A program made the translations under genes and the position numbers. Positions 14,949 through 30,972 of a stretch of DNA of 64,000 bases are shown here, piece after piece. The notes below the pieces were generated by a model. That model worked only from the letters and a program-made list of their open reading frames with translations. It had not been told where the DNA came from and ran no database searches. This DNA is from Candidatus Latescibacterota bacterium (lineage in GTDB: Bacteria > Latescibacterota > UBA2968 > UBA8231): positions 2,976,001 to 3,040,000 of the forward strand of contig OZ244561.1 in NCBI GenBank assembly GCA_965217585.1, written 5' to 3'. The number at the start of each line of letters is the position of its first letter. The stretch's first letter is position 1.

Positions 14949-15607
14949 TCGCTGTCCCAAGCCAGCGATAGCTGAATCCCAACCTGCCCGGTCCCCAATT
15001 CCAAGCGCGGCGCGATCTCCACTCCCTGCTCCTGCTTTTCGTCGCCCAACGCGAGCAACTGCCACCCAGCGAGGGCAAAGGCCGCCGCAGTCATCCAGCT
15101 CATCTGGCTTTGGGTGTCGCGGCTGTTGGCGCGGTCCAAAAAGCGCTCGGCTTCTTGCGGCGTGCTGGCCTTTTGGTAGCGCCGATAAGCGTCGTCGCCC
15201 TGCTGGCGAAAGTCCCAGCTTTTGACGAGCAGTATCGCGCTCCCGCTGCAAAGGGCCCAGCCCCAAGCGCGGCGCGACGTCATCCAGCCACGATCTGCGC
15301 CCCTTACCGACCATGCCACCGCCCCTAAACCCATCGCCCCCATCACCACCGCCCGCGTGTCGAATCGTCGGCGCTCGTCGTAGAAGATCTGCGCGTCGCT
15401 GCTGGACTCTGTCCGCTCGTAGCGCTCGTCGGCCCGGTTGGCTTCCCGCCGCGCCTGATAGGCTTCGCTGAGCAGCCAGCCGCCGGCACCCAGCGCGATA
15501 TAGCTGGCTACTTTGCGCGAGAGGCGCGGACCATCCGCTCGCGCCTCTCCGAGCGACGCCAGCGTCAGGATGCAGGCCAGTGTTAGAATGCTCCGTCTGT
15601 TGTTCAC
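14945..15607 (-). CDS. hypothetical membrane protein with two internal TM-helix repeats (DUF5683-like)
   Basis: Signal peptide; two similar units (TM, A..Y..Y...S..A..F.D.....DT, TM); GTGA overlap with the TolC-family gene stop. Confidence 0.7.
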   Translation of the reverse strand: MNNRRSILTLACILTLASLGEARADGPRLSRKVASYIALGAGGWLLSEAYQARREANRADERYERTESSSDAQIFYDERRRFDTRAVVMGAMGLGAVAWSVRGADRGWMTSRRAWGWALCSGSAILLVKSWDFRQQGDDAYRRYQKASTPQEAERFLDRANSRDTQSQMSWMTAAAFALAGWQLLALGDEKQEQGVEIAPRLELGTGQVGIQLSLAWDSD

Positions 15608-16983
15608 CGCAGGTCTCCACGCCCTCTGGCGGCGACGGGTTTCCCCACCGCTTGGTCGAGCTGGGCTAGCTGGATGTGGTAGTTGAAAATGGCCTGGACT
15701 AAGTCGTTGCGCGCCGCAAAAAGGCTCGCTTGCGCTTGGAGCCGCTCTAGCTGCGTTCCGGTGGACAAAGCATAGCGCTCCTGCGCCAGCTTGTAGCTTT
15801 CCTCGGCAGCGCTGACCGCGATCTGGTTGGCCTCAATGCTGCGCCGATATAGCTCGATATTGAGGAAGGCTCTTTTAATATCCAGTGCCACCTGCCGCTT
15901 AGCTTGGTCGAAGTCTTCCATGCGCTGGCGGTAGTTCAGCTTTTGCGACTTGATGGAATTCTGGGTGCTCAAGCGGTTGAATAACGGCAGCCCCAGGCTC
16001 ACGCTGAACGAGTAGCCGTAGTTTTTCAAAAAGAGATCTTCCGGCCCCGCAAACGTCTCGTCGGCCCGCAGTCGCCAGTTGTAGCCGGTGCTCATGCTCA
16101 CGGTCGGGTGCAGCAACTCGTAGCGGGTCCCGCGCAGGTCCTCCTCGGCTTGCAGCAATAAAAACTCCTGCGACCGCAAGTCCGGGCGGTGCTCCAGCGC
16201 CAAGGCCAAGGCTTCCTCGTAGCTCAGCGCGAGCGGTACCATCGCAAATTCCTCCTCGACCGGCACAATCGGTTCGTAGGTCCGCAAGCCCATGGCAAAG
16301 GCCAAGTCGGCACCAGTCACCGCGACGCTGTTTTCGCGGTCGATTAGGTTCGCCCGTGCGCTGGCCAACGCGGCCCGCTCCGTCAGCACATCCGACAGGG
16401 GCACCGAGCGGACCTCGAAGAGCGTCTCGGCCCGGCGCAGGCTCTCCTCTGAGACCCGCACCTGCTCGGTCTGTACCTTCATCAGTTCAATAGCCTGCAA
16501 TAAGCTGAAGTATCCCTGCTTGACCTCAAAGACTACTTGCTGCTGGCTCGTACTCAGGTCCATCTCGGCCGCCTTGTGCCCCAGTTTGCTCGACGCTAGG
16601 GCGGTCCAGTTGCCGCGATTGTACAGGTTCATACTGAAGCCGGTACCCAGCGACTGCGAGCCGCTGGAGGTGCTCTCGCCGAGGGTAGAGGTGACCTCGC
16701 CGGTGGCTGGATCGACAAAGGATCCCTCGCGCGGCCCGGAGACGCTGCGCGACATCCCGTAGGAGGCGCTGATCGATGGTAGAAAGGCATTGCGAGCGTT
16801 CCCGATTTGGATCGCCGCGGCTTCGATATTGGAGCGGCCCTGGATGACCGCGGCGCTCTGCTCTAGGGCGATGGCGATGCAGTCGTCCATGCTCAAGCGG
16901 AGCGCCGCTGGCTCTGCTGCGCCGCTGGGGCGCGTCAGGACCCCCACCACCAGCCAGCAGAAAACGGTGTGTTTACTTTTCAC
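15604..16983 (-). CDS. TolC family outer membrane efflux protein
   Basis: LSMDDCIAIALEQS, FLPSISAS, VKQGYFSLL, ALEHRPDL, LPLF, A.ESYKLAQERY..G; GTG start overlaps the upstream stop. Confidence 0.9.
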   Translation of the reverse strand: MKSKHTVFCWLVVGVLTRPSGAAEPAALRLSMDDCIAIALEQSAAVIQGRSNIEAAAIQIGNARNAFLPSISASYGMSRSVSGPREGSFVDPATGEVTSTLGESTSSGSQSLGTGFSMNLYNRGNWTALASSKLGHKAAEMDLSTSQQQVVFEVKQGYFSLLQAIELMKVQTEQVRVSEESLRRAETLFEVRSVPLSDVLTERAALASARANLIDRENSVAVTGADLAFAMGLRTYEPIVPVEEEFAMVPLALSYEEALALALEHRPDLRSQEFLLLQAEEDLRGTRYELLHPTVSMSTGYNWRLRADETFAGPEDLFLKNYGYSFSVSLGLPLFNRLSTQNSIKSQKLNYRQRMEDFDQAKRQVALDIKRAFLNIELYRRSIEANQIAVSAAEESYKLAQERYALSTGTQLERLQAQASLFAARNDLVQAIFNYHIQLAQLDQAVGKPVAARGRGDLR

Positions 16984-17699
16984 GAGAGCAGCCTTTCTCG
17001 CTGCGCCATCTGCCGCAGCCCCGAAAAGAGCAAGAGCGCACCGCCGAGCACCAGCGTCGCGCGGTTGAGCGCGACCATCTCGGCCCACACCGCATCGTCT
17101 AGGCCCAGCGGCAGGCTAAAGGGATTTAAGAAGAGAAAGTAAGCGGTCTCCGCCAGCGACTCGGCGCTCAGCAATACCGCGACCAGTACTCCCAGCGAAA
17201 GCATCCCGGCCGTATTGCTGCTCTTGCAGAGCACCGAAAAGAAGAAGGTCAGATTGGCGATCAGAAACGCCGGTGCGAACGCATTGAGTCCGCCCAGCGC
17301 GAACGGAAATTCGGCGAAGAGGAAATAGGCCGCCGCACTCATGCCCAGCAGGGTCGCCGCCAATAGCAGGTAAACGGCCACCATCCGCAGCGCCCAGATC
17401 CCGTAGTGCGAGGTGGAAGTGCTAAAGAGCGCCTCCAGCGTCCGGCGGTCGCGCTCGCCGGCCACCAGATCCATCGCTAGGTAAATCGCCAAGACCGCGC
17501 CGGGGATCTCCACCAGCACGTAGGGGGCCTGCCCGGCGCTGAACCCCTCGTCCGGCCGGAACACCGCCAGTGCGTAGAGCACTCCGTAGTATGTGGCGAT
17601 ACCCAAAACCATGAGCAGCAGCTTGCGGTGAAAGACGATCCGCGCACTGAGCCAGCACTGGGCGACTAAGCTGGCAAACAGGGTGGTCCAAGTCAGCAC
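16980..17699 (-). CDS. ABC-2 type transporter permease
   Basis: About six TM helices, cytoplasmic GERDRRTLEALFSTS motif, NPF near the C-terminus. Confidence 0.8.
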   Translation of the reverse strand: MLTWTTLFASLVAQCWLSARIVFHRKLLLMVLGIATYYGVLYALAVFRPDEGFSAGQAPYVLVEIPGAVLAIYLAMDLVAGERDRRTLEALFSTSTSHYGIWALRMVAVYLLLAATLLGMSAAAYFLFAEFPFALGGLNAFAPAFLIANLTFFFSVLCKSSNTAGMLSLGVLVAVLLSAESLAETAYFLFLNPFSLPLGLDDAVWAEMVALNRATLVLGGALLLFSGLRQMAQRERLLS

Positions 17700-20600
17700 G
17701 AGGGCACGTTCTCCCGTCTCAACACATAGATGTAGGCGTCCTCCAGCGTCGGCTCGACGGGCACGGCCGCCAGCCCCGGCACGGCGTCCGCAGCCAGAAA
17801 CCGCACGCGAATGCCGGCGGGTGCGCGCAAGTGCGAGATCACGTTGACCTGCTCGCCGATCCGGGATAGCTCCTCTTCGGCGACGACCGCCTCCCACGCA
17901 TGGCCTTGCGCCAGATCGCGCATGGCCTGCGGCGTGCCCTCGTAGAGGATGCGGCCGGCATTGAGCACTGCGAGGCGGTTGCAGCTACCGGAAATATCCT
18001 CGACGATGTGGGTCGAGAAAAGGACGATCCGCTCCTGACTGATCCGCGCCAACAGGTTGCGGAAGCGAATCCGCTCCACCGGATCTAGGCCCGCGGTCGG
18101 CTCGTCAACGACGATGATCTGCGGCAGATGCAGCAGGGTCTGCGCGATCCCCACGCGCTGCTTCATGCCGCCGGAAAACGAGCCGATCAGGTCGTCTTGC
18201 CGCCCGTCGAGATTGACCTGTTCGAGGCTGGCACCGACCCGGGCGCGGCGCAGGGCCGGGTCGCGGAATCCCTCCAGCAGGGCGCGATACTCTAGATACT
18301 GATAGGCCGTCAGGTGCTCGTAGAGGCCGAAGTGCTGGGGCAAATAGCCGATCACCCCCTGCACTGGGCCGCGGCGGGTGACATTGACGCCGTCAAAGGC
18401 CACCGATCCCGAGCTTGGCTCCAGCACTTGCGATATGATCCGCATCAGCGTCGTCTTGCCGGCCCCGTTGGGGCCGAGCAGGCCGAACATGCCGCGCCCG
18501 ATCTCCAAGTTGACCCCATAGAGGGCTTGGTATTGCGGCCTTTCCACGCCGATCAGGGGCAGGGCCGCCGCCCCGCGATACGCCCTGCGCACCAGCCACG
18601 CCAGCCGACCTGCCAGCGCCGCCGGATCCACCTCGCCGCGGCGCACCCGGTCGGCCAACAGACGCGCCCCCTGATAGCCCAGCCACACCGCCAGCGAGGC
18701 GACCGTCAGCGAAGGCAGTGCCAAGCGTTGATGTACATAGCCAACCAATAGCAGCGGCACCGCCCATTGCGCCAGCGCGTGCGCCCCCGCGCCCAGACCA
18801 AGCAAAGCCCCCTGCCGCAGCACGTGGGCCACCAAGCCCCACGTCGCCAGCGAGAGCAGGTAGAGCCAGAGCGCGTCCGCAAAGTAGGTGTGTAGAAAGC
18901 CGAGGAGCACCAACAGCGGCAGCTTCCAGCTCAAGCCGTCCTTGATCGCTTTGCGATCTACCGGGTCAATACCTTGAGTCCGCAGTCTTGAGTCGCGGCG
19001 GTCGAAGCGCGTCCACTCCCGGCGGAAGCGCCCGGGGGCACCGTAGATCTTGGTCAGGGTTTGCAGGCGGATCGAATGCACCGCCGGCACCTCGTGCCGC
19101 GCCGCCCGGGCGCGGTAGATCCGCAGGGCAAGCGCGGCCACTCCGAGCAGCAAAAACCACAGCGGCAGCGCCAAGAGCACCGGCCAGAACAGGCTCGCGG
19201 ACTCCATATACAACGCGACCACAGCCGCCGCCGCGACCACAGTCGCCAATCCCACGCCGACGCGGCCGATCCCCCTGAGCCACGCCCGCACCTGATCCAG
19301 CCCCATATAGGCCACCGGCACGAAGATCAGCGTCGAGACCATCGACACCGCCAGCCCCCCCAAGACGGTGATGGCGAAGGGCGGCCAGACCTCGTAGTCG
19401 CCGCCGAAGTCGAGCGCCAAAGGCATCACGCCCAACAGGGTCGTCGCCGAGGTCATCAGGATCGGCCGCACCCTGGAGCGAGCGGCCGCCAGCACCGCCC
19501 GCTCGCGGCGGCAGCCTTCCCGCTCGCGGAGCGTGCCAATGGCGTCGATGAGGATAATGCCGTTGTTGACGGCAATGCCGATCAACACGATAAAGCCCAG
19601 CAGAGCCATCGGCCCCGCCTGCGAGCTTAGCCCGGTGCCCGTCAGCATCAGCGCCCAGCACGAGCCAATCGCCGCGGTCGGCAGGGTGCAAAAGATCAGC
19701 AGCGGCGAGGCGAACGATTCAAAGAGCGAGGCCAGCACCATGTAGGTCAGCACCGCCGCGATCCCCATCATCCAGTAGTAGATCGCATCCGTTGCGACCT
19801 CGGCGATCTCGATGGTGTAGTCGCCGGGCAGCACCAAGTCTTGGACCACTGCCCGCACTTGGTCCCGCGCCGCGTCGAGCAGGGGCTGCGAGTCGAGGAT
19901 TTCGTCTGTGAACTGATAGGAGACCACCACGCGCCGCGCTTGGTCGGTGCGCAGGATACTATTGCGCCCCTCGTCGGTGCGCACCTTGGCCAGCTCCGCA
20001 AGCGGCACATACTCACCCGTACTGGTCAGCACCGGAATGGCCCCAACCCCGGCGCGCCCGGGCCCATCGGCCTCTGGGTCTGCGGTCGGCCGCACCTCGA
20101 TGGGGATCTCGCTGCCGTCGGCCTTGAGGAAATCCGTCTGTGCTGCGAAGCCTTCTGGATTGGCGTTGGCTATCGCGCTCAGGACGGTGTTGACGCGCAG
20201 GTCGTGGTCGAAAAGCGCCAGCGGACGGGGAATCACCTGGATCTCGGGGCCGCTGCGCTGGAGGTCGGGCCGCACGCTGTTGGCGTCGATTTCCTCCAAC
20301 TCTTCGAGCCGATAGGACAAATCGTCGGCGATCATCTGCAACACCGCGAAGTCGTACCCCTTGATCAGCGCCGTCTCTGAGGTGGCCCCCGCCTGCAAGT
20401 TGAAACCCCCGGTCCCCCCGGTCCCCCCGGTCCCCCCCCCGCGTCCGCCACCCCGTCCCCTGCCGCCGCCGAAACTGCTAGCCTGCGGTTCGTAGCCGAT
20501 CAGGGCACCCTGAATTTCCTGCAACTCGCCGTCGAGCTGGTCCTTCAATTCCTCGGCCGACACCCGCTCGGGCCGCTCGTCGCGGTCGAGGAGCATCACC

Positions 20601-22396
20601 GTGACGCTGCCCTGCCCCTCCTGGACGCTGGTCGTAAACCGCTCAATGCCCGGCAGTACTTGCACCGCGTCCTCAATCTGTCGCATCACCTCGTCTGTCG
20701 CATCGAGGGTCGCGCCGTCGGAGAGACTCGCGTACACCGAAAACCGAGTCTCCGCGGCGATGACTTCCTGTTGCAGCAGGAAAAAGAACGCGGCCACCAA
20801 CGTCGCCAGCAGCACCAGGAACACGCCGCAAGCCACTGCGCCCCGATGGCGCAAACTGGCCTTGAGGAACAGCGTGTACCTCCCCATTAGCCTTCCCGTG
20901 CCCAAAGGTGCCGATGCCTGACGCTCGAGCATCCGCGCCGCCAACGCGGGTACCAGCGACAGGGCCACCAGCAGCGAGGCCAGCAGCGGGAAGGTGATCG
21001 CCAGCGCCAACTCGCGCAGAATGTCCTGGAAGTCGCTCTGGATAAAGACTACCGGCAAAAAGACCAGTGCCGTTGTCGCCGTCGCCGCGATCACTGCCTT
21101 GCTCACTTCCTCCGTGCCGTCGCGCGCCGCCTCTACGGGCGATTTGCCCCGCTCGAAGTGCTTGAAGATGCTCTCCATCACCACGATGCTGTTGTCGGTC
21201 AGCATCCCCATCGCCAGTGCCAGCCCGCAGAGCGAGAGCACGTTGAGCGTTAGATCCGAGGCGTACATCAAGTTGAACGTCGCCAGCAGCGAAGCCGGAA
21301 TCGCCAGTAGCAGGATGGCCACAAAGTGCGCATTGCGCAGAAAGAGGAACAGCACCGCCAACCCCAACACCAGCCCGACCAACGCCGCCTGTTTCAGGGT
21401 GTCGAGCGAGTCCTCCATCAGCGCGGCTTGGTTGTTGGTGACGATCAGCGACACACCCTCGGGCGCGAAGTCGCGGTTGAGCTGGGCGATCGCCGTGGCC
21501 ACTGCATCGGCGACCGCGATCAGGTTGGCCTCGTCCTCTTTCTGGATCAGGATCCCCACCGCCGACTGGCCGTTGACCCGGCTCAAGTCCGTGCGCTGCT
21601 GCAACCCGTAACCCACCTCGGCCACATCCCCCAAGCGCAGCGGGATCGACGCGTCGATGAGGGTCTCGTCAATCTGCCGCAAGTCGCCAAACTGCCCCTG
21701 AAAGCTGACCGGAAAGACTTGGCTGCCGTCGTACACCGCGCCGAGATAGACCCGGGGCTGGTTGGCGTCGGCGAGCGCGTTGCGCAGATCGGCCATCGTC
21801 AACTGGTAGGCTTGCAGGCGCTCCGGCTCGGCGACGATCTCCACCGCGCTTTGCCGACCGCCCAATACCTGGGCGCTGACCACCCCTTCGACCGCGGCCA
21901 GCGCGGGGGCGATATGTTCCTCGGTGTAGTCCCTGAGCCAGTTGAGGTCCGCCTCTGCTGCCAGGACCTGCAATTCCATCACCGTCGCGCTCAGATCGTT
22001 CTCGTCGAAGCGCTGCACCGCGATTTGGGTCCGGGCGGGAAAACTTGGTTGCAGGCGGTCCATCCGGCTCTGCACCTGCAAGAGCGCGAATTTCATATCC
22101 GTGCCCGGCTCGTAGGATATCCGCACATTGCCCCGGTTGAGCGAGGCGGTAGAAGTCATTTCCACCACGCCTTCGAGCTGACTTATTTCCTCCTCGACCG
22201 GCATCACCAACTCGCGCTCGACCTGTTCGGGTGCCATGCCCTGCTGCGCGATCGCGACGAAGATCTCGGGGTACACCACCTCGGGCATCAGCTCCACGGG
22301 CAGGCGGTCGAGCGAGATCAGCCCCAACAGCGAGACCGCGGAGAAAAACATCGCCGTCGTCACTGGGCGGCGGATGGAGAAGGCCGACAAGCTCAC
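17693..22396 (-). CDS. RND (AcrB-like) permease fused to a C-terminal ABC ATPase domain, ~1567 aa
   Basis: SIRRPV N-terminus, TDNSIVV, VNNGII, RVRPILMT; then extra TMs; then GPNGAGKTT, GYLPQ, FSGGMKQR, VDEPTAGLDP, STH, all in one open frame; GTG 22396 overlaps the previous stop. Confidence 0.88.
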   Translation of the reverse strand: MSLSAFSIRRPVTTAMFFSAVSLLGLISLDRLPVELMPEVVYPEIFVAIAQQGMAPEQVERELVMPVEEEISQLEGVVEMTSTASLNRGNVRISYEPGTDMKFALLQVQSRMDRLQPSFPARTQIAVQRFDENDLSATVMELQVLAAEADLNWLRDYTEEHIAPALAAVEGVVSAQVLGGRQSAVEIVAEPERLQAYQLTMADLRNALADANQPRVYLGAVYDGSQVFPVSFQGQFGDLRQIDETLIDASIPLRLGDVAEVGYGLQQRTDLSRVNGQSAVGILIQKEDEANLIAVADAVATAIAQLNRDFAPEGVSLIVTNNQAALMEDSLDTLKQAALVGLVLGLAVLFLFLRNAHFVAILLLAIPASLLATFNLMYASDLTLNVLSLCGLALAMGMLTDNSIVVMESIFKHFERGKSPVEAARDGTEEVSKAVIAATATTALVFLPVVFIQSDFQDILRELALAITFPLLASLLVALSLVPALAARMLERQASAPLGTGRLMGRYTLFLKASLRHRGAVACGVFLVLLATLVAAFFFLLQQEVIAAETRFSVYASLSDGATLDATDEVMRQIEDAVQVLPGIERFTTSVQEGQGSVTVMLLDRDERPERVSAEELKDQLDGELQEIQGALIGYEPQASSFGGGRGRGGGRGGGTGGTGGTGGFNLQAGATSETALIKGYDFAVLQMIADDLSYRLEELEEIDANSVRPDLQRSGPEIQVIPRPLALFDHDLRVNTVLSAIANANPEGFAAQTDFLKADGSEIPIEVRPTADPEADGPGRAGVGAIPVLTSTGEYVPLAELAKVRTDEGRNSILRTDQARRVVVSYQFTDEILDSQPLLDAARDQVRAVVQDLVLPGDYTIEIAEVATDAIYYWMMGIAAVLTYMVLASLFESFASPLLIFCTLPTAAIGSCWALMLTGTGLSSQAGPMALLGFIVLIGIAVNNGIILIDAIGTLREREGCRRERAVLAAARSRVRPILMTSATTLLGVMPLALDFGGDYEVWPPFAITVLGGLAVSMVSTLIFVPVAYMGLDQVRAWLRGIGRVGVGLATVVAAAAVVALYMESASLFWPVLLALPLWFLLLGVAALALRIYRARAARHEVPAVHSIRLQTLTKIYGAPGRFRREWTRFDRRDSRLRTQGIDPVDRKAIKDGLSWKLPLLVLLGFLHTYFADALWLYLLSLATWGLVAHVLRQGALLGLGAGAHALAQWAVPLLLVGYVHQRLALPSLTVASLAVWLGYQGARLLADRVRRGEVDPAALAGRLAWLVRRAYRGAAALPLIGVERPQYQALYGVNLEIGRGMFGLLGPNGAGKTTLMRIISQVLEPSSGSVAFDGVNVTRRGPVQGVIGYLPQHFGLYEHLTAYQYLEYRALLEGFRDPALRRARVGASLEQVNLDGRQDDLIGSFSGGMKQRVGIAQTLLHLPQIIVVDEPTAGLDPVERIRFRNLLARISQERIVLFSTHIVEDISGSCNRLAVLNAGRILYEGTPQAMRDLAQGHAWEAVVAEEELSRIGEQVNVISHLRAPAGIRVRFLAADAVPGLAAVPVEPTLEDAYIYVLRRENVPSC

Positions 22397-25300
22397 CGCA
22401 GCCGCTCCACCGTCTCGTAGGCCACGGGAATGACCACCAGCGTCATCAGCGTCGCGGAAATAAGTCCGCCGATCACCGCAATCGCCATCGGCGCCCGCAA
22501 GGCCGCCCCTTCGCCCACCCCGATTGCCATCGGCGCGAGCGCCAAAATCGTGGTTGCCGTCGTCATCAGGATCGGCCGCAGCCGGTCCTGCGCGCCCTGC
22601 AGCACGGCCGCGCGCACCGTCGGCAACTGCGCCCGTAGCTGGTTGATGCGATCGACCAATACGATAGAGTCGTTGACCGCGATCCCGCCCAGCATGATGA
22701 TGCCGATATAGGCCATTGCGCTCAGCGGCTCGCCCAGCCCCCAGAAGGCCCACACCACGCCGACGCCAGCCAGCGGCACGGTCAGCATCACGGTAAAGGG
22801 GTGCAGCAGCGACTCAAAAAGCGAGGCCATCACCATGTACACCAGCACCACCGAGAGCAGCAGCGCGAACTGCAAGTCGGCAAAGGACTCCTGTCGCTCG
22901 CGCTCCTCGCCGCCGATGGCGATCCGATAACCACGGGGCAGGGCCATGCTATTGACGACCTGCTCGACCTGCCCGATGGCCTCGCCCAACACCGCGCCTT
23001 CGACCAGATAACCCGCCACCCGCCCGACCCGGCGCTGGTCCTCGCGCAAAATCTCGCGCGGCCCTTCGACAAGTATGGGATCCGACAAATCGCCCAGAGC
23101 CAGAATCGCCCCATCGGGCGCATCAATCCGCAACTGCGGCAGCTCGCGCAAGTCGAAGCGCGCAAAACCGACGCGGATGTCGCGCGAGCGTTGGTCTTTG
23201 GACAACTCGCCGATTACCTCGCCCGACAGCCGGCGCTCCAGCGCCTGCACGATGGTCGCGACGGTCAGCCCGCTGGCGACGACCGCGTCCTCGCGCAGCC
23301 GCAGGTCGATCTCAGGTTGGCCGCCTTGGAAGTTCGAAGTGACGTTGTACACGCTCGGCAGCTCCTCCAAGCGGGCGGCGAGATCGGCGCACAGGCGGCG
23401 CAACACTTCCACCTCGTCGCCAATAATCTCCACTTGGACCGGGGCCGTCCGCTCGCCCAGCACTCCTTCGAGCGCGGTCTCGTGTAGCTGGTATTGCACG
23501 TCTAGTTCGGGGATTTGCGCCAATTGCGCGTCAACGACCTCGACCAGTTGCGGCAGGTTGCGACTGGTCTGCTGGGCCAGCGCGACCGACAGCGTGGCGC
23601 GGTTGGGTCCGGTAGGGTCGCCGATGTTGGCCAGCCGCGCCGGGTCCACGCCCGCCCGGGCGTACACTCCGGCCACATCGTCGCCGCCTACCTCGCCGAT
23701 GATCTCCCCCACCCGCTTGGCCACCCGATCGGTCAGCTCCAGCCGCGACCCTTGCGCCAGTGACAACTCCACGTGGAAAAGCCCTTGGTCTTCGCGCGGG
23801 ATAAACTCGGTGGGGATTGCGCGGGCGACGTAGGCCGTGCCCGCGCCCGTTGCGGCCACCAGCAACAAAACCACTCCCTTGTGGTCGAGCACCGCGTTGA
23901 GCAAAGCGCGGAAGCGCAACCAGCGCTGCTCGGTTGTCGCCCCGCCGCGCCCGCGCAAAAAACGCGAGGTTAGCATCGGCACGGTCATCATCGCCACCGC
24001 CAGTGACGAGACGAGCGAAAAAGCCACGGTCCAGGCTTGGTCCTTAAACAGTTCGCTGGTCAGCCCTTGCAGGTAAACGATCGGCAGGAAAACCGACACG
24101 GTCGTCAGCGTCGAGGCCGTAATCGCCACCCCGACCTCGCTGGCTCCCTTTGTCGAAGCTTGGCGCGCGTCTTCGCCCCGCTCGAGGTGGCGGTAGATAT
24201 TCTCAATGACCACGATCGCGTTATCGACCAGCATCCCCGCCCCTAGCGCCAAGCCGCCGAGGGTCATGATATTGAGCGTCAGATCCTCGAAATACATCAG
24301 GGTAAAGGTCGCTAGAATTGAAATCGGAATCGCCAGGCCGATCACCAAAGTCGCCGTCCACGAGCGCAAGAAAAACAGCAATACCCCCACCGCCAACACC
24401 GCCCCGTGCAGCGCCGCCTCTTTGACCTCGGCTACGGCCTCCTCGATAAAGCGCGCTTGGTTTTCAACCACTGCAAAGCGCAACTCGGGCAAGTCTTGGT
24501 CGAGCTCGCCGATGGATTCGAGCACCCGGTTGATGACCTGTACCGTATTGCTACCGGCCTCCTTGTAGAGCGCCAAGCCGATGCACTCGACTCCGTCGAG
24601 CCGCACGATCGTCTCCCGTTCCGCGTACTCCAGCGCCACCCGTCCCACTTCGCGCACGTAAACCGGCACCTGCAACCCCGCCTCGACGCCTGCCCCCTGC
24701 CGCGCCCCGACGATCACATTGCGCACGTCCGCTAGGTCTTTGAGCCGCCCCAGCCCCTTGACCTGGTACGATTGCTGCGCCTCGCGCAAGGTCCCCCCGG
24801 ACACGTCCTCATTGGCCGAGGTAATCGCCGCGATGACTTGGTCGGCGTCCTGCCCAAAGGCTTCGAGCAGGTACGGATCCAACGTCACCCGGATTTCTTT
24901 TTCCGCATCTCCTTCGATGTCTGCCGAGGCCACCCCGGCGAGTGCTTCCAGCTTGGGCTTGACCACGGTCTCGACCGCGCCCAACAGCTCGTCGAGGTCG
25001 GCCAACTCCGTCGCCGAGACCGCGATCCGCATCACCGGCAGCGCCTGCGGGTCCTCCTGAATGACATCGAGCGTTTCAATATCCTCGTCGGTGGCGTACA
25101 CCCCCATCTTCTTCTGCACGTCGATCAGGGCAAAATCCATATCCGCTTCCCAATCGAACTCGGCCACCACCACGGACTGCCCTGAGCGGGTGATCGAATA
25201 GACCCGAGCGACTCCGCTGATCGTGCTGATGTCGCGCTCCAGCCGCCGCGTATATTGCTCTTCCACCTCCTGCGGCGCCTTGCCGGGCACCTGCAAGTCA

Positions 25301-25440
25301 ACTGTGATGACCGGCGTGTGCATGTTGGGCAGCAGGTCGGTCCCCAATTTGCTTAGGGAGATCGCCCCCAACAGCGCCACCGCGAGGGTCAGCATCAACA
25401 CGGTGACGGGATAGCGGGTGGAAAACTCAGGTAGCGACAT
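22393..25440 (-). CDS. RND (AcrB/AcrD/AcrF family) efflux permease
   Basis: FSTRYPV, LVDNAIVVIENI, VNDSIVLVD, RLRPILMTT, PMAIAVIGGL. Confidence 0.93.
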   Translation of the reverse strand: MSLPEFSTRYPVTVLMLTLAVALLGAISLSKLGTDLLPNMHTPVITVDLQVPGKAPQEVEEQYTRRLERDISTISGVARVYSITRSGQSVVVAEFDWEADMDFALIDVQKKMGVYATDEDIETLDVIQEDPQALPVMRIAVSATELADLDELLGAVETVVKPKLEALAGVASADIEGDAEKEIRVTLDPYLLEAFGQDADQVIAAITSANEDVSGGTLREAQQSYQVKGLGRLKDLADVRNVIVGARQGAGVEAGLQVPVYVREVGRVALEYAERETIVRLDGVECIGLALYKEAGSNTVQVINRVLESIGELDQDLPELRFAVVENQARFIEEAVAEVKEAALHGAVLAVGVLLFFLRSWTATLVIGLAIPISILATFTLMYFEDLTLNIMTLGGLALGAGMLVDNAIVVIENIYRHLERGEDARQASTKGASEVGVAITASTLTTVSVFLPIVYLQGLTSELFKDQAWTVAFSLVSSLAVAMMTVPMLTSRFLRGRGGATTEQRWLRFRALLNAVLDHKGVVLLLVAATGAGTAYVARAIPTEFIPREDQGLFHVELSLAQGSRLELTDRVAKRVGEIIGEVGGDDVAGVYARAGVDPARLANIGDPTGPNRATLSVALAQQTSRNLPQLVEVVDAQLAQIPELDVQYQLHETALEGVLGERTAPVQVEIIGDEVEVLRRLCADLAARLEELPSVYNVTSNFQGGQPEIDLRLREDAVVASGLTVATIVQALERRLSGEVIGELSKDQRSRDIRVGFARFDLRELPQLRIDAPDGAILALGDLSDPILVEGPREILREDQRRVGRVAGYLVEGAVLGEAIGQVEQVVNSMALPRGYRIAIGGEERERQESFADLQFALLLSVVLVYMVMASLFESLLHPFTVMLTVPLAGVGVVWAFWGLGEPLSAMAYIGIIMLGGIAVNDSIVLVDRINQLRAQLPTVRAAVLQGAQDRLRPILMTTATTILALAPMAIGVGEGAALRAPMAIAVIGGLISATLMTLVVIPVAYETVERLR

Positions 25441-25450
25441 AATGCGAGTA

Positions 25451-26548
25451 CTATCTCCCCGGCCCGCCCCGACCACCTGCCCCCCTAGCCTCTCCGGTCC
25501 CCGTTACACTGACCCGCGTCCGCGACCGCAGGGTCTCGTAGTTGCTCGTAATCAGCCGCTCCCCCTCCTCCACGCCGCGCAGCACCTCCACGAACGTTTC
25601 GTCCTCTAGCCCGGTCTCAATTTCCCGCATCTGCGCCCGTGCGCTTTCTTCGACGAATACGACCTCGCGATTCCTCCTCACTAGCACCAACTCGCGCGGT
25701 ACCAGCACCACGTCGGCGTGCGACTCGACCACGATCTCGGCCTTGACGAACATCCCTGGCCGCAGCAAGTGCTCGGGGTTGTCTATCGCCGCCACCGCGC
25801 GAAAGGTCCGCGTCGCGGCATCCACCACCGGGTCAACCGCGACGATGCGGCCGGCGAACACCTCGTCCGGGTAGGAGTAATCGACCGCCCGCACGGGCTG
25901 ATCCAGCGCGATGTGGCGGATTTGCGAGTTGGGAATCTGCAAGTCGAGCAGCACCGCGCTGTAATCGACGATGCGGCAGATCTGGATGTTCGCCTCGACC
26001 AGCGTCTGCTCGCTGGCGTCGGTGAACTCGCTGAGCACCCCGGAGATCGGGGCGGTAATTGCGGTCTTGCCGATCTGGACCAAGGCGTCGTCGTAGTCCG
26101 ACTGCGCGTCGGCCAAATCCTTGCGCGCCGCTTCGACATCGAACTGGGTCACCAAGCCGCGCTCGACTAGGACTTCTTGTTCGGCGAGGGTTTGGCGCGC
26201 GTTCTGCACGGCCAGCTTGCGCGCCTCCAGCCGGGCACCGACCACCAGTTCCTCGTTGTCGAGGCGGGCGAGCACTTGGCCCTGCTGCACGGCCATCCCC
26301 TCGGTCGGCTTGCGCCCGTCGCCTAGTTGGACCAGCGACAGGAACCCCCGCGTCTCGGTGACCACCACTGCTTCCTGCACTGACCGCAGGGTGCCGGTGG
26401 AGGTAACGACGGACTCGATGGTCCCCAACCCCACCGGCTGCACGGTGACCGGGACCGTCAAATCGGCCGTCTGCTGGACGGTCTCGCTTTCGCAGCCGAT
26501 TAGCAACAGGAGCGCCCATGCCGAGGCGCATAGGATTGTATATCGCAT
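25451..26548 (-). CDS. RND periplasmic adaptor (MFP) lipoprotein
   Basis: Lipobox LIGC; V..GQVLARLD, ITAPISGV, P.VD.ATRTF, LRPGMF; GAGG upstream of ATG. Confidence 0.92.
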   Translation of the reverse strand: MRYTILCASAWALLLLIGCESETVQQTADLTVPVTVQPVGLGTIESVVTSTGTLRSVQEAVVVTETRGFLSLVQLGDGRKPTEGMAVQQGQVLARLDNEELVVGARLEARKLAVQNARQTLAEQEVLVERGLVTQFDVEAARKDLADAQSDYDDALVQIGKTAITAPISGVLSEFTDASEQTLVEANIQICRIVDYSAVLLDLQIPNSQIRHIALDQPVRAVDYSYPDEVFAGRIVAVDPVVDAATRTFRAVAAIDNPEHLLRPGMFVKAEIVVESHADVVLVPRELVLVRRNREVVFVEESARAQMREIETGLEDETFVEVLRGVEEGERLITSNYETLRSRTRVSVTGTGEARGAGGRGGPGR

Positions 26549-26563
26549 ATTTACCTCAGAGCA

Positions 26564-26588
26564 GGGCAAGCACAAGGGCTGCCCCGAC
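26564..26588 (-). repeat. degenerate REP-like palindrome
   Basis: Minus strand GTCGGGGCAGCCCTTGTGCTTGCCC resembles the element at 32844-32868. Confidence 0.55.
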
Positions 26589-26635
26589 AAGATTTGTTGG
26601 TATAGATGCTTTAGGATGTGCCCTACGGATATGTC

Positions 26636-29600
26636 TCAAAATACCTTGTTCAACCAACGGGTAATAGCGCTCGGTTGCTGCCGCCCGCCACCGCGACCGC
26701 CGCGACCGCCGCGACCGCCGCGACCGCGCCAATTGCCGAAAGACCCCACATCTTCCTCGTAGGCGGCCTCTGGGTTGTCTGGGTCAATCCAGCGCCAGCG
26801 CACTGCATCGGCGTAGAGTTGGCCGCTGGCTTGGTCGGACAGCTCGACCCGCGCCCTTTCGCCTTCGGCAAAGTGAAATCGCCCCAGCAAATTCCAGCCG
26901 CCTTGCAGCGTCTCGCTCTTGAGCGCGAGAGTATCTACCACACCCCCATGCGCGACCGCGAGCGAAAACGATTCGGCCAAGCTCAACCCAAAGCGCCGAC
27001 TAAACCGCGACGGCACGAAATAGTACGCCACGTCGTAGAAGCCCGCCTTGGGCAGCGTGGTCGTCCACACCGCCGGCTGCGCCCCATCGCCGGGCGGCTT
27101 CCAGCGGAAATTGGTCTCGTAGCGGCCGAAGGCAAGAGGCAGCTCCTGCACCTGCCAGTTGTCGCCTCTAAGCCCGGGGCGCAGGTAGCGTTGCACCCGG
27201 CGGATCGGCATGGAAAAGCCCTCGTCGTCGTTGTCGACTACGATCTCCGAGAAAAAGTTTTCCTCGTCTTCTACGACTCGCACGTAGGATTTGGGATAGC
27301 CGGCAAAGACCTGCTCGGGGATGCTCAAGGCGGCGACAATCGGCCGCTGGTTTTTGGCCAAAAACGGCTCGACCATCACCCGGAACGGCCGTGCAAAAAG
27401 CACCATGGACACCTCGACCTCCTGCCCGCCTTCAATGGCAATCGCCTTTGCGGCTTGGTCCTCGCGCCCAAGGGCCTGCACCTCGACAAAGCCGCGGCCC
27501 GGCTCGCCGTTTTTGATCCGCACGATCACCTGGTACACCACTGCGCCCCAGCCGTCGTCCATCTTCTTGGCCGTCGCCCGGGTCAGGGTATAGCCCGGCA
27601 CGTGGGTTCCGTAGATCCAGTCGTGGACTAGCTGCTGCACGTCGATCTTCTGGCGGCCAACTTCCCCGTCGGGGACGACCGCATCCTCAAAATCGGCAAA
27701 GGAGACCTGCTGGTACTTGTTGTTCTCGTCAAAGGTGCCGACCGCTTCGATAAATTGGTCGGCCCCCAGCACCGACTTGACGACCCGGAAGATGGACAGG
27801 CTCTTGGCTTTGAGGATCGACCGGTAGAGGGCGGGTTCGGCGGCTTTGTCCATTTCCGCCAGCGAGTGCTGCTGCATCTCTACCACCAGCGTGTCCCAAG
27901 CCGGGCCGGTGTTAGCGGCGGGCCGGGGGGCACCGCCGGGGCCGCCGCCCCGAGAGCGCATCATGCTGCTGATCATCCGCGCCATTCCGCCGCTCATCCG
28001 GCCGCCCCAGCGGCTCGAAAACATCGCCATCCGCAAGTCGGCGCTGACGTCTTCCTGCATGTAGAGCGGCAACCCGCGCGCGACTAGGTCGGCGTGCTCG
28101 CCGCCGAAGCCGCGGTCAAAGGACCATAGCTGCACCAGTGGGCTGCGAAACAGGCCGCTACGCCCTCCTTCGGGACTCAAGAAATCCTGGAAGAGTGCCC
28201 CGACCAGCACGTCTTTTTTGGCTTGCGCCTCGTCTTGGTCGCCGCGCCGCCGCGCCATCCGCGCATCAAAGTCGCGCTGGAAGCGGTGGCCCATCAACAC
28301 GTCCTCCTCAATCATCAGCACCCCTGGCTGCACTAGGCCACCGCGCTCCTCCCAGCCCTCGTAGTACCACTGCACCAAGAAGGGCACCTCCACCAGCGAG
28401 AGCCTCGGGTACGAGTATTTCAGCCCCGTCTCCTGCTCCATCGCGTCGAAAAGCTGGTCGATGGTCTCTACTACTTTGTCGGGAGCGTCGGCGAAAAAGC
28501 GCACCGGGCGCAGGTGGGCCGGATGGACATAGAGGGCGAACTCGACCTCGCGGACCGTGGTCTTATAGACCTCGTAGCGGCCGGCGTGTAGAGAAAAAAG
28601 CGGCACCGGATAATCCACCTGCCACTGCGTGCGGACGCGCCCGCCTTGGTCCTCTTGGGCTATGGGTCGCCCCTGCGTGACCACCTCCAGCCCAGCGGGC
28701 ACCGACACCGCGATCTCTGCCGTGGCAAACGAAGGCGGCGGCGGCACTTGCGGGTGGTAGGCTACCCCGGCGATGGGATACCAGCCGCTGCGTGGGGGCA
28801 AAAAGACCGATTCGCCGCGGATCCAGGCCGTCAGGTCGCCCTTGATAAACGGCCACTTGTTCTTGTGCAGCCGCACCTCGTCGCGCAGCAGATCAAAGCC
28901 TTGGCGGTCGATGTCGCCGTCGTAGGCCAGCGTCAAGGTCTGCTCAGCCCCGGCGGCCAGCGGCGCGGCGACCCGGATCACGGCCGCACCCCGCTTCCAC
29001 CCCAACTCGTTGCCGGCCGCATCCTGCACCGACCGCAGCGTCAAGCCGGGGTTGAGCGCAAAAATCAGCGTATCCAGCGCGCCGTCGTGGTCGTTGTACA
29101 ATCGCAACTGGGCCTTGGCCGCCAGCGGCGCATCCTCGCCAGCCAACGCGACCTCCAGCCGGTAGTGCGCCACCTGCGGTACCGGCGCGTCTGCGTAGCG
29201 ATATTGCTCGGCGAGCAGGCGCTGGCGATAGGCTTGGTTGGCTTGGTCTTGGGCGTCGATGTGCTGATACAGCCCCACCGCCGCCAACAGCCCCACCCCG
29301 GCCATGCCCCGGCCGACCCAAGCCCATCCCAGCGACTGGGACAGGCGCGGATAGCGCTCTATCGACAGGCCAAAAAAGAACAGCCCGAGGGCTAAGTAAA
29401 AAAGCCGCTGGTCGATCACCCGCGATATATCGCCCAAGCCGATCATGTCCGAGTAGAAAAGCGGGGCGAAAAAGGCCCCAAAGTCCCACCAGCCGCCGTA
29501 GCCCTCGCCGAGGTAAAACAACACCGCGAGCGCGTAGGCCATAGTCAGCAGGGCGACAGCCGTCTGGTGCCGCAACACAGCGCCTAAAAAGAAGGTCAGG

Positions 29601-30094
29601 GCCGACATGTACAGCAGCGCCGGCAGGGTCATCACCAGCAGGTACAGCAGATAGGGCCGCAGCGTGAACGGCGCGTCGAGCAGGCTGATCTTGGCCGCTT
29701 GGACGGCCACCGTCAAAACCAGCACCGCCAAGCTCAAGGTCAGCAGTGCCCCGAGGACCCCGAGGTACTTGCCGATGACCAGTTCGGCGGTCGCTATCGG
29801 CCGCCCGGCGATCACCTCGTGGACCCCGGCCCGCTCGTCGGCGGCGCGGAAGTCGCCGACGATAAAGGCGATCACGACCGCCTGTACATAGCTATAGACG
29901 TAAAAGGGGACAAACGCCCCCATGCCCAGCGCCGAGCTGAACTCGATCCCCCGCGCTTCGAGCACGGCTAAGCCGACGCCAATCAGCAGCGGCAGCGCGA
30001 CCCCGATGCTGCCGAGGATGCGGAAGCGGGTGGTCCGCAAGAGCAGCATCCGCTCGTAGCGGGCCACGCCGAGGATGTTGTGGACGGCGCGCAT
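26636..30094 (-). CDS. ABC-2 permease fused to an M1-aminopeptidase-like domain (no HExxH) and a C-terminal golvesin/xanthan-lyase-like beta-sandwich
   Basis: N-terminal TMs with DERAGVHEVIAGRP...GKYLG; M1-like YRLEV, WYP, YPRLSLVEVP, K....VLG.DQF; C-terminal IVVDNDD.GF...W...G.YDV...GWNLLGRF...ADAVRW. Confidence 0.78.
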   Translation of the reverse strand: MRAVHNILGVARYERMLLLRTTRFRILGSIGVALPLLIGVGLAVLEARGIEFSSALGMGAFVPFYVYSYVQAVVIAFIVGDFRAADERAGVHEVIAGRPIATAELVIGKYLGVLGALLTLSLAVLVLTVAVQAAKISLLDAPFTLRPYLLYLLVMTLPALLYMSALTFFLGAVLRHQTAVALLTMAYALAVLFYLGEGYGGWWDFGAFFAPLFYSDMIGLGDISRVIDQRLFYLALGLFFFGLSIERYPRLSQSLGWAWVGRGMAGVGLLAAVGLYQHIDAQDQANQAYRQRLLAEQYRYADAPVPQVAHYRLEVALAGEDAPLAAKAQLRLYNDHDGALDTLIFALNPGLTLRSVQDAAGNELGWKRGAAVIRVAAPLAAGAEQTLTLAYDGDIDRQGFDLLRDEVRLHKNKWPFIKGDLTAWIRGESVFLPPRSGWYPIAGVAYHPQVPPPPSFATAEIAVSVPAGLEVVTQGRPIAQEDQGGRVRTQWQVDYPVPLFSLHAGRYEVYKTTVREVEFALYVHPAHLRPVRFFADAPDKVVETIDQLFDAMEQETGLKYSYPRLSLVEVPFLVQWYYEGWEERGGLVQPGVLMIEEDVLMGHRFQRDFDARMARRRGDQDEAQAKKDVLVGALFQDFLSPEGGRSGLFRSPLVQLWSFDRGFGGEHADLVARGLPLYMQEDVSADLRMAMFSSRWGGRMSGGMARMISSMMRSRGGGPGGAPRPAANTGPAWDTLVVEMQQHSLAEMDKAAEPALYRSILKAKSLSIFRVVKSVLGADQFIEAVGTFDENNKYQQVSFADFEDAVVPDGEVGRQKIDVQQLVHDWIYGTHVPGYTLTRATAKKMDDGWGAVVYQVIVRIKNGEPGRGFVEVQALGREDQAAKAIAIEGGQEVEVSMVLFARPFRVMVEPFLAKNQRPIVAALSIPEQVFAGYPKSYVRVVEDEENFFSEIVVDNDDEGFSMPIRRVQRYLRPGLRGDNWQVQELPLAFGRYETNFRWKPPGDGAQPAVWTTTLPKAGFYDVAYYFVPSRFSRRFGLSLAESFSLAVAHGGVVDTLALKSETLQGGWNLLGRFHFAEGERARVELSDQASGQLYADAVRWRWIDPDNPEAAYEEDVGSFGNWRGRGGRGGRGGRGGGRQQPSAITRWLNKVF

Positions 30095-30099
30095 GGCGT

Positions 30100-30972
30100 T
30101 TAGGCCGATCCCATAAAATAGATATAGGCGTCTTCGAGGCTGGGCGCGGTCGGCACGGCACCCGGCGGCGGTGCTGCGTCGCCGACGATCCTGAGCGCCA
30201 TGCCGACGCCGTCGGCGCTGATGTTGACCACGCTAAAGCGGCTGGCGATGGCCTCAAACCCGTCGTCGTCGGTCTGCAAAAGCCAGGTTTTGCCCTCGGC
30301 CTTGGCGACGAAGTCCGCGGGTGCGCCGTGGAAGCGCAGCCGTCCCTGATGCAATACGGCCAAGTCCTCGCAGGTGCTCGAAATATCGCCGACGATGTGG
30401 GTCGAGATGAGAATGGTGCGGCTGGCGCTCAGCCTCCCCAAAATGGCCCGGAAGCGGATCCGCTCCTCTGGGTCAAGCCCGACGGTCGGCTCATCGACGA
30501 TGATAAACTCAGGGTCGGCCAAAATCACCTGCGCGATGCCAAGCCGCCGCCGCATCCCCCCCGAAAAGGTGCCGGTCTTGCGCTCGCGCACCTCGTAGAG
30601 ACCCACGTCCTCCAAAGCTTGGGCGACCCTTTCGCGGCGCTGCCGCTGGCCGTGCAACCCGCCGAGCCGCCCCATGTAGTCGAGGAATTCCCAAGCCGAA
30701 AGCTGCGGGTACGCGCCGAAGTGCTGCGGCAAGTAGCCGAGCCGCCGCCGCACCTCGGCGCGGTCCTTTTGCAAGTCCCAGCCGTCGATCTCCACCGCGC
30801 CCGCGCTGGGCACCATCTGGGTGGAGAGAATTTTGATCAGCGTGGTCTTACCCGCGCCGTTGGGTCCTAAGAGACCAAACGTCCCGTGGCGGATCTCCAA
30901 GCTCAGGTCAGCAAGCGCCGGAACCTCGTTGCGGCCATAGGTCTTGCTCAGGTTTTGGATGCGTATTCTCAA
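30100..30972 (-). CDS. ABC transporter ATP-binding protein
   Basis: IQNLSKTY, GPNGAGKTT, GYLPQ, FSGGMRRR, VDEPTVGLDP, STH, PSLEDAY. Confidence 0.95.
   Translation of the reverse strand: MRIRIQNLSKTYGRNEVPALADLSLEIRHGTFGLLGPNGAGKTTLIKILSTQMVPSAGAVEIDGWDLQKDRAEVRRRLGYLPQHFGAYPQLSAWEFLDYMGRLGGLHGQRQRRERVAQALEDVGLYEVRERKTGTFSGGMRRRLGIAQVILADPEFIIVDEPTVGLDPEERIRFRAILGRLSASRTILISTHIVGDISSTCEDLAVLHQGRLRFHGAPADFVAKAEGKTWLLQTDDDGFEAIASRFSVVNISADGVGMALRIVGDAAPPPGAVPTAPSLEDAYIYFMGSA

Follow-up and report, generated by a model that had tools for sequence, protein, structure and literature searches.

We describe a protein, predicted from its gene, that unites an RND and an ABC pump in one polypeptide. 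It is encoded in a 64,000-nucleotide stretch of the genome of a Candidatus Latescibacterota bacterium (contig OZ244561.1, positions 2,976,001 to 3,040,000), which we call the window. RND (resistance-nodulation-division) and ABC (ATP-binding cassette) pumps are taught as distinct machines, each with an energy source of its own, which cooperate at most through the periplasm. Judged from its sequence, the 1567-residue protein, P0001 (17693..22396, minus strand), is a complete RND efflux pump covalently joined to an ABC motor. After an AcrB-type RND domain come two additional membrane helices, then the motif IRLQTLTKIY, an insert of 169 residues, and the remainder of an ABC-2-type nucleotide-binding domain (NBD). 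The motif corresponds to the first β-strand of the NBD, and structure prediction supports the view that this detached strand completes the NBD sheet in its canonical place, with a membrane bundle between it and strand 2. Proteins of this kind are conserved in Gemmatimonadota-like bacteria, Latescibacterota, Acidobacteriota, KSB1 and Bacteroidales. Their parts are familiar, but the covalent RND–ABC union and the interrupted NBD topology are not, and a search of the full-text literature, with most subscription journals outside its coverage, returned no account of an RND pump fused to an ABC protein or of an NBD carrying a membrane insertion.

The fused reading frame and its divided nucleotide-binding domain

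All parts of the fusion lie in one open frame that runs without a stop codon from 17693 to 22753 on the minus strand, and its integrity across the fusion was judged from homologues. The likely start of the gene is the GTG at 22396, because this start overlaps the stop of the RND gene upstream and because homologues of 1550–1600 residues begin at the equivalent place (for example, with VTLAGIAVRRPVTT in the related locus L093). Pfam recognizes ACR_tran (1.7e-188) in the translation and, about 260 residues further on, ABC_tran (1.6e-26). The RND domain (residues 1–1031; 19304..22396) scores 629 bits against PF00873 and covers positions 2–1018 of the 1021 in that profile, the full-length architecture of 12 transmembrane (TM) helices and two loops; its score against the NCBIfam model RND_permease_2, 525.9 bits, is under the cut-off of 1250. 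The C-terminus of the RND protein AcrB is cytoplasmic. In P0001, two further membrane helices follow the last TM helix of the RND domain (TM12), at residues 1045–1065 and 1070–1099 (19100..19264, minus strand). They were recognized by hydropathy and in an AlphaFold2 model of the 533-residue C-terminal fragment (window positions 17696–19294), where they are residues 11–31 and 36–65; fragment numbers are converted to P0001 numbers by adding 1034. These two helices are predicted to bring the chain back to the cytoplasm.

The original prediction, made from the letters of the window, held that the NBD is split by a membrane insert of about 170 residues with roughly four hydrophobic helices. The motifs that it quoted are all on the minus strand in one stop-free frame, with IRLQTLTKIYG at 19040–19072, ALYGVNLEI at 18500–18526 and the Walker A motif GPNGAGKT at 18452–18475, and exactly 171 residues lie between the end of the first and the start of the second. 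From the modelled strand, structural superposition and residue invariance, we place the detached strand 1 and its A-loop tyrosine at S-IRLQTLTKIYG (19040..19075, including K1116 and Y1118). The insert in the strand 1–strand 2 loop, delimited by alignment, hydropathy and AlphaFold2, comprises residues 1120–1288 (fragment 86–254; 18533..19039). The NBD from strand 2 onward, with its C-terminal domain, comprises residues 1289–1567 (17696..18532), as indicated by its motifs, by Foldseek, and by alignment to a free ABC-2-type ATPase encoded elsewhere in the window (30100..30972, minus strand; Pfam ABC_tran 1.3e-31).

This free ATPase is the closest paralogue of the fused NBD, and has an uninterrupted strand 1–strand 2 hairpin. 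Its N-terminus reads IRIQNLSKTYGRNEVPALADLSLEI...GPNGAGKT, with 24 residues from the A-loop tyrosine to Walker A, as compared to 190 in the fusion. The GldA and DrrA profiles match the free ATPase from profile position 1, and the fused NBD (7.3e-51 and 5.2e-47, respectively) only from positions 14–16, without strand 1. The PF00005 match to the fused NBD (93.9 bits against a cut-off of 25) similarly begins at profile position 4, which is strand 2. When we aligned the free ATPase to the fused NBD with hhalign (probability 100%, 45% identity), its residue 14 fell onto fragment residue 252 in a match extending over 252–529, and its residues 1–13, which form strand 1 and the A-loop, had no contiguous counterpart.

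The detached strand is conserved in sequence and in position. In an alignment of 53 homologues its lysine and tyrosine (fragment K82 and Y84; K1116 and Y1118) are invariant, as are GPNGAGKT, the Q-loop LPQ, SGGMKQR, VVDEPTAGLD (Walker B DE and D-loop D404) and the H-loop STH. Of 120 full-length members of the family, 115 have Y as the A-loop aromatic residue and the other 5 have F. In 120 of 122 full-length relatives the strand-1 motif is found 181–314 residues (median 197) ahead of Walker A, where a continuous hairpin would place the tyrosine about 24 residues away; the two misses have Walker A spellings outside the pattern we used (GPNAAGKT and GSNGAGKS). A loose strand-1 pattern matched only 6 times among the 127,996 residues of the window's six-frame translation, and two of these matches are the strands of the two ABC proteins. 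Because the motif is kept in place in so many relatives, and because the window has so few matches to it, the likeness to strand 1 is not due to chance.

We modelled the 533-residue fragment with AlphaFold2 using the 53-sequence alignment, obtaining a mean predicted local distance difference test score (pLDDT) of 85.9 and a predicted template modelling score of 0.70. After the two linker helices, the model contains a strand at residues 74–84, two short basic helices, four long helices, a helix at 232–243, and strand 2 at 255–266. The strand at 74–84 is formed by the motif IRLQTLTKIYG (residues 75–85), and pLDDT is 91 over residues 71–80 and 82 over residues 81–90. Using VIA-align we found that all 50 of the solved NBD chains listed superpose from model residues 69–74, mostly starting from chain residue 1–5–for example, chain residues 2..239 of 1vpl align with model residues 73..526 (Z = 27.0, root-mean-square deviation (rmsd) 1.6 Å, 232 of 238 residues), and 4yer aligns over 268 residues (Z = 27.7, rmsd 3.7 Å). 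The best Foldseek match of the model is also 4yer (4.4e-22). Since the starts of solved NBD chains fall on this segment, the detached strand is predicted to sit in the canonical strand-1 position. When the membrane part was modelled without the NBD (pLDDT 89.7), the strand-1 residues turned to coil, as one would predict for residues that form a strand only when paired with the NBD. The proposal in the original prediction that IRLQTLTKIY pairs into the NBD sheet is therefore supported, at the level of a structural model and by the invariance of its key residues.

Within the insert, a basic amphipathic helix is followed by four membrane helices (fragment residues 114–137, 141–167, 169–191 and 194–218; 18641..18955, minus strand) and then by a basic return segment with one more helix. 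The four helices are seen in AlphaFold2, with block-mean pLDDT of 90–96 when the membrane part was modelled alone, and as four hydrophobic segments in the family-averaged hydropathy. Three residues of the insert (W94, W123 and P246) are invariant in the 53-sequence alignment. Across the 53 homologues the cores of the four helices have a median of 0 charged residues, and the predicted outer turns have fixed lengths of 3 and 7 residues with median K+R counts of 0 and 1. The predicted cytoplasmic segments are rich in K and R, with counts of 9 after strand 1 (net charge +4), 5 in the middle loop (+3) and 12 in the return segment (+9). The charge-free cores, short outer turns and basic inner segments place both pieces of the NBD in the cytoplasm, and this pattern fits a predicted topology of four membrane spans with both ends of the insert cytoplasmic, as the original prediction would need. 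Foldseek searches of the PDB with the membrane part folded alone gave no match at E ≤ 0.001. With VIA-align, the highest Z among 48,161 chains was 9.3 (rmsd 2.9 Å, 84 residues aligned), which is below the guide value of about 13 for helical-bundle noise, and the top matches were generic two- or three-helix hairpins; an ESM Atlas search with fragment residues 61–255 gave no usable match. No relative of the membrane bundle was thus identified among solved structures, which does not show that it is a new fold.

Distribution of the fusion

We searched for relatives using P0001 residues 1030–1567 as the query and considered the best 120 matches. All of them carry both PF00873 and PF00005. They have 38–88% identity to the query, usually over 99–100% of its length, and are mostly 1540–1650 residues long. 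Their source names include Gemmatimonadota, Latescibacterota, Acidobacteriota, KSB1 and Bacteroidales, and matches to fragments also named Zixibacteria, Krumholzibacterium and Chryseosolibacter. Among 1.84 billion cluster representatives, a narrower query consisting of strand 1 plus the insert (206 residues) reached E ≤ 0.001 with only 40 proteins, and in all 15 of these that are at least 1500 residues long the match lies at about residues 1090–1320. Because the matches to the insert are few, and lie at the same position in the long proteins, the insert appears to belong to the RND–ABC fusion family. In a search for stand-alone forms, no protein carrying this insert without an RND domain was established; the shorter matches are mostly on contigs of a few kilobases and resemble fragments.

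Of 41 close-relative genomes, 20 have the full module: 7 of the 25 in the window's genus (counting the window's own genome), all 12 in a sister family, and the 1 genome sampled from another. In the phylum as a whole the insert was found in 84 of 168 genomes, representing 27 of 49 genera, and in 34 of the 52 genomes of high quality; two sister families have it in 29 of 31 and 19 of 22 genomes. The contrast between a patchy genus and near-universal sister families suggests loss or transfer. We did not use for these counts a separate contig search with back-translated generic NBD motifs, in which only 2 of the 80 loci kept (L001 and L002) span the insert and the others are ordinary ATPases. The presence of the module in several phyla, and in half of the genomes sampled within its own, bears out the earlier view that the fusion is old and selected rather than a chance read-through, and we conclude from these comparisons that the fused layout is old and under selection.

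Some variant forms were seen. Four short proteins (P0122, P0123, P0124 and P0128; 308–639 residues) are on very long contigs, and in the alignment of P0123 the RND periplasmic region passes straight to the second linker helix. In two genomes of the same genus (G015 and G017) the module is longer by about 48 bases and contains a single in-frame TGA. These short forms and TGA copies may be broken copies, sequencing indels or gene-call splits. In P0207 (678 residues, on a 2669-nucleotide contig) the gene order is permuted: residues 18–147 match the first ~145 residues of the permease that is normally encoded downstream of the fusion (58% identity, E = 5e-48), and these are followed by a linker helix, strand 1, the insert and the NBD. 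P0207 is either a chimeric assembly or a real permease::split-NBD form that lacks an RND domain.

Neighbouring genes and the predicted permease partner

The genes around the fusion are all on the minus strand, in the order free ABC ATPase, 1152-residue protein, adaptor, unfused RND permease (RND1), fusion, 239-residue permease, and TolC-type outer membrane factor. The adaptor, or membrane fusion protein (25451..26590), is identified by NCBIfam RND_mfp (176.6 bits against a cut-off of 94.9) and Pfam HlyD_D23. The outer membrane factor (15604..17088 as the open reading frame is listed, with the start probably further in) is identified by Pfam OEP (7.5e-65) and TIGR01844 (1.9e-50). In Pfam searches the 1152-residue protein (26636..30094) has a Golvesin_C region (3.8e-14) and weakly resembles an ABC-2 permease in one region and an M1 peptidase in another; it is the likely partner of the free ATPase. 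No NCBIfam model reached its curated cut-off for the fusion, the 239-residue permease or the 1152-residue protein. The order adaptor–RND1–fusion–permease is kept in all six loci that we inspected, namely the window, L093, L094, L095, and the two Bacteroidales loci L001 and L002. The 1152-residue protein is syntenic in L093, L094 and L095; the two Bacteroidales loci lack both it and the free ATPase, and have the outer membrane factor first.

RND1 (1027 residues; 22393..25476; Pfam ACR_tran 1.6e-223) is a paralogue of the fused RND domain, which we call RND2, and lies directly upstream of the fusion in the window and in all five of the other loci. In the window, RND1 and RND2 have 32% identity. 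The RND1 orthologues of the window and of Bacteroidales are closer to each other (40.9% identity) than RND1 is to RND2 (26–32%), and therefore the RND duplication predates the split of these lineages. We considered five residues that we take to form the proton relay of AcrB: D407, D408, K940, R971 and T978. In both RND1 and RND2, at all six loci, the equivalents of D407, R971 and T978 are retained, D408 is replaced by N and K940 by V, so that TM4 of both paralogues has DN where AcrB has D407–D408. We found no support for the idea that the fused RND domain has lost its proton-pumping activity, with ATP in place of protons: RND1 and RND2 share their TM4 and TM11 residues, and the sole difference between them in this comparison is one TM10 Asp, which Bacteroidales RND1 also lacks. 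This extra Asp (in the sequence AVND) occurs in RND1 of the window's class, and is absent from RND2. The periplasmic part of RND2 contains a low-complexity run rich in Gly, Arg and Thr, GGGRGRGGGRGGGTGGTGGTGG (P0001 residues 643–664; window 20405–20470, minus strand); in 44 of the 122 full-length relatives, 20 consecutive residues somewhere within 561–760 include 12 or more Gly.

The 239-residue permease (16983..17699) is of a six-helix type, and its GTG start is 4 nucleotides ahead of the stop codon of the fusion. An open reading frame of about 240 residues starts between −56 and +14 nucleotides from the fusion stop in all 17 loci, from 15 genomes, and some relatives of the permease carry PF12679 or PF12698. 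We predicted the complex between the 533-residue fragment and this permease, entering both as alignments, together with three controls. The pair scored 0.69, 0.67 and 0.70, and the best of the three controls scored 0.00; the runs share at least 93% of their contacts, and the pLDDT of the partner is at least 77. Among solved complexes, 116 of 157 pass the calibration mark, and among mismatched pairs 2 of 215; these counts are rough guides here because our own alignments were used. In the predicted interface, the groove around the Q-loop and the helical subdomain of the NBD (residues 285–349) contacts the N-terminal helix of the permease (2–25) and its loop 85–101, in which E89 and L91 are invariant; the interface also touches the two linker helices and Y84–G85. 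Because ABC-2 exporters show this pattern, the high score may stem from resemblance to solved ABC-2 complexes. From the modelled docking, we consider the downstream permease to be the likely membrane partner of the split NBD.

Proposed function and alternative explanations

We infer that P0001 is probably a conserved chimeric transporter subunit, in which an ABC-2 exporter is hard-wired to a tripartite RND pump. We propose that a complete RND permease runs on, via the two extra membrane helices, into an ABC-2-type ATPase whose strand 1–strand 2 hairpin loop has grown, immediately behind the A-loop tyrosine, into a membrane bundle of four helices. With the sheet completed by strand 1, and the tyrosine in position for stacking against adenine, the ATPase would be whole and catalytically competent. 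The NBD would be tied to the membrane at three points (ahead of strand 1, behind strand 1, and ahead of strand 2), with the bundle and the two linker helices pinning it beneath the RND membrane domain, and it would power the ABC-2-like permease encoded by the next gene. Since ATP hydrolysis needs an NBD dimer, RND pumps are trimeric, and the unfused RND gene is always kept, we suggest a mixed trimer of two fused protomers and one RND1, like MdtB2C, which would supply the NBD dimer. Transport could then be a relay: the ATP-driven ABC part would move the substrate from the cytoplasm or inner leaflet, and the proton-driven RND/adaptor/TolC part would expel it through the outer membrane. PMC4338810 describes inner-membrane transporters that feed tripartite pumps, and in its simplest form the fusion may be a hard-wired version of that cooperation. 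The fusion offers a direct handle on whether substrates are handed over from inner-membrane exporters to tripartite pumps.

Several observations weigh against this proposal. All of the structural support is prediction, and a network trained on NBDs may seat any strand-1-like peptide in the sheet; the pairing of the strand rests on three indirect signs, which are its DSSP strand state, the aligned ranges and its loss without the NBD. Insert helices A, C and D have short hydrophobic cores (14–18 residues), for which reason the insert may instead form two re-entrant hairpins rather than four full spans. The permease scores 26.9 bits against PF12679 (ABC2_membrane_2), just short of the 27.2 cut-off, and its orthologues from L001, L002 and L094 have no Pfam match at E ≤ 0.001. 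The insert helices (114–218) are not among the confident permease contacts. RND trimers and ABC dimers differ in symmetry, and the 2:1 arrangement is borrowed from MdtBC. Finally, the fusion is patchy in the window's own genus, where 7 of 25 genomes have it with its own genome counted.

In a more elaborate scheme, the bundle would be no passive anchor but a transmission element that links the adenine-stacking A-loop directly to the RND membrane domain. The nucleotide state and the proton/substrate state would then control each other in a tripartite pump energized by both ATP and the proton-motive force, with the ATPase dimer coming from exactly two fused protomers of an RND1·(RND2::NBD)2 trimer. 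This is tentative and we consider it doubtful; if true, it would be a new mode of energy coupling between two great efflux superfamilies. An unlikely explanation is that the NBD is a regulator and not a motor, such that ATP gates or resets the RND pump via the bundle, and the small downstream protein is an anchor or scaffold. It would account for the start of the insert one residue past the adenine-stacking tyrosine and for the invariant W94, W123 and P246, as in a transmission element, as well as for the marginal ABC-2 likeness of the downstream permease and the lack of confident contacts between it and the insert helices. However, all 53 aligned homologues keep the full catalytic set unchanged, the catalytic Glu and H-loop His among it; the permease is strictly syntenic at 17 of 17 loci, and it is predicted to dock in the canonical coupling groove. 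This combination of catalytic residues, synteny and modelled docking is the signature of a working ABC transporter.

The other two explanations that we considered concern the detached strand and the fusion itself. Strand 1 could be swapped in trans onto the NBD of a neighbouring protomer, locking two fusions into an obligate dimer. The ~35 and 36 non-membrane residues that join the strand-1 and strand-2 ends to the bundle are long enough for this, and a monomer model is blind to the difference between cis and trans; but the model closes the sheet in cis with high pLDDT (the values of 91 and 82 given above for blocks 71–80 and 81–90), no observation requires a swap, and we regard it as very unlikely. 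Alternatively, the whole arrangement could be an artefact of misassembly, frameshift or read-through, or IRLQTLTKIY could be a look-alike in the linker attached to an NBD that lacks strand 1. The short or rearranged database forms (P0123, P0124 and P0207), and the single in-frame TGA in the region in two relatives, would fit an artefact. Against it, more than 100 independent clusters of proteins of about 1550–1600 residues have the identical order of parts, the motif is in place in 120 of 122 full-length members with its K and Y invariant, and the predicted fold seats the strand correctly. These comparisons make an artefact or chance origin extremely improbable and, for practical purposes, refute it.

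Several known systems resemble parts of the fusion. SMC and Rad50 proteins, which are not transporters, have ABC-type heads into which a very long soluble coiled coil is inserted, separating the Walker A half from the signature half; they share with P0001 an interrupted ABC fold closed by distant segments, and they have no membrane bundle in the strand 1–strand 2 loop. The regulatory insertion in NBD1 of CFTR is at the same site of the ABC fold as the insert described here. However, the CFTR segment is about 30 residues long, soluble, partly disordered and phosphorylated, whereas the bacterial insert is 169 residues long, well ordered in the model and present family-wide, with four membrane helices. 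CFTR halves are reported to have been co-expressed with the chain cut inside the regulatory insertion (residues 1–414 plus a second piece). The fusion indicates that the ABC fold tolerates a whole membrane domain at the site of the CFTR regulatory insertion, which has a bearing on NBD folding and domain-boundary prediction. The ATPases DrrA, GldA, NosF and TM_1403 (PDB 4yer) are the best sequence and fold matches of the fused NBD (for NosF, 7osf, the Foldseek E-value is 5.0e-19). ABC-2, or type V, exporter ATPases share with it an extra C-terminal domain, and these exporters contact the permease through its N-terminal helix and coupling loop, as predicted here. Known ABC-2/type V ATPases are, in contrast, free soluble subunits with a continuous hairpin, and the one in P0001 is split by a bundle and fused behind an RND pump.

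On the RND side, MdtABC and MuxABC have tandem paralogous RND genes behind one adaptor gene, as do all six of our loci. MdtBC works as a B2C1 heterotrimer, as stated in PMC7015380, citing Kim et al. 2010. MdtB and MdtC have only 25–26% identity to the RND proteins described here, which differ in having DN and not DD in TM4, no Lys at the K940 position, and an ABC module on one of the two paralogues. MacAB–TolC similarly has an ABC ATPase joined to membrane helices, with an adaptor and a TolC-type duct, and the NBD of MacB (5lj9_B) superposes on our model with Z = 26.5 (rmsd 2.3 Å, 219 residues aligned). In MacB, as described in PMC8277102, the NBD precedes its own permease of four helices in the chain and there is no RND protein, whereas the NBD of P0001 is C-terminal to an RND pump and has an interrupted fold.

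The fusion also has a bearing on automatic annotation. Databases at present label such proteins either 'RND permease' or 'ABC domain protein', and profile models miss strand 1. Elsewhere in the window, an open frame of 5376 residues extends over positions 36548–52678 on the minus strand.

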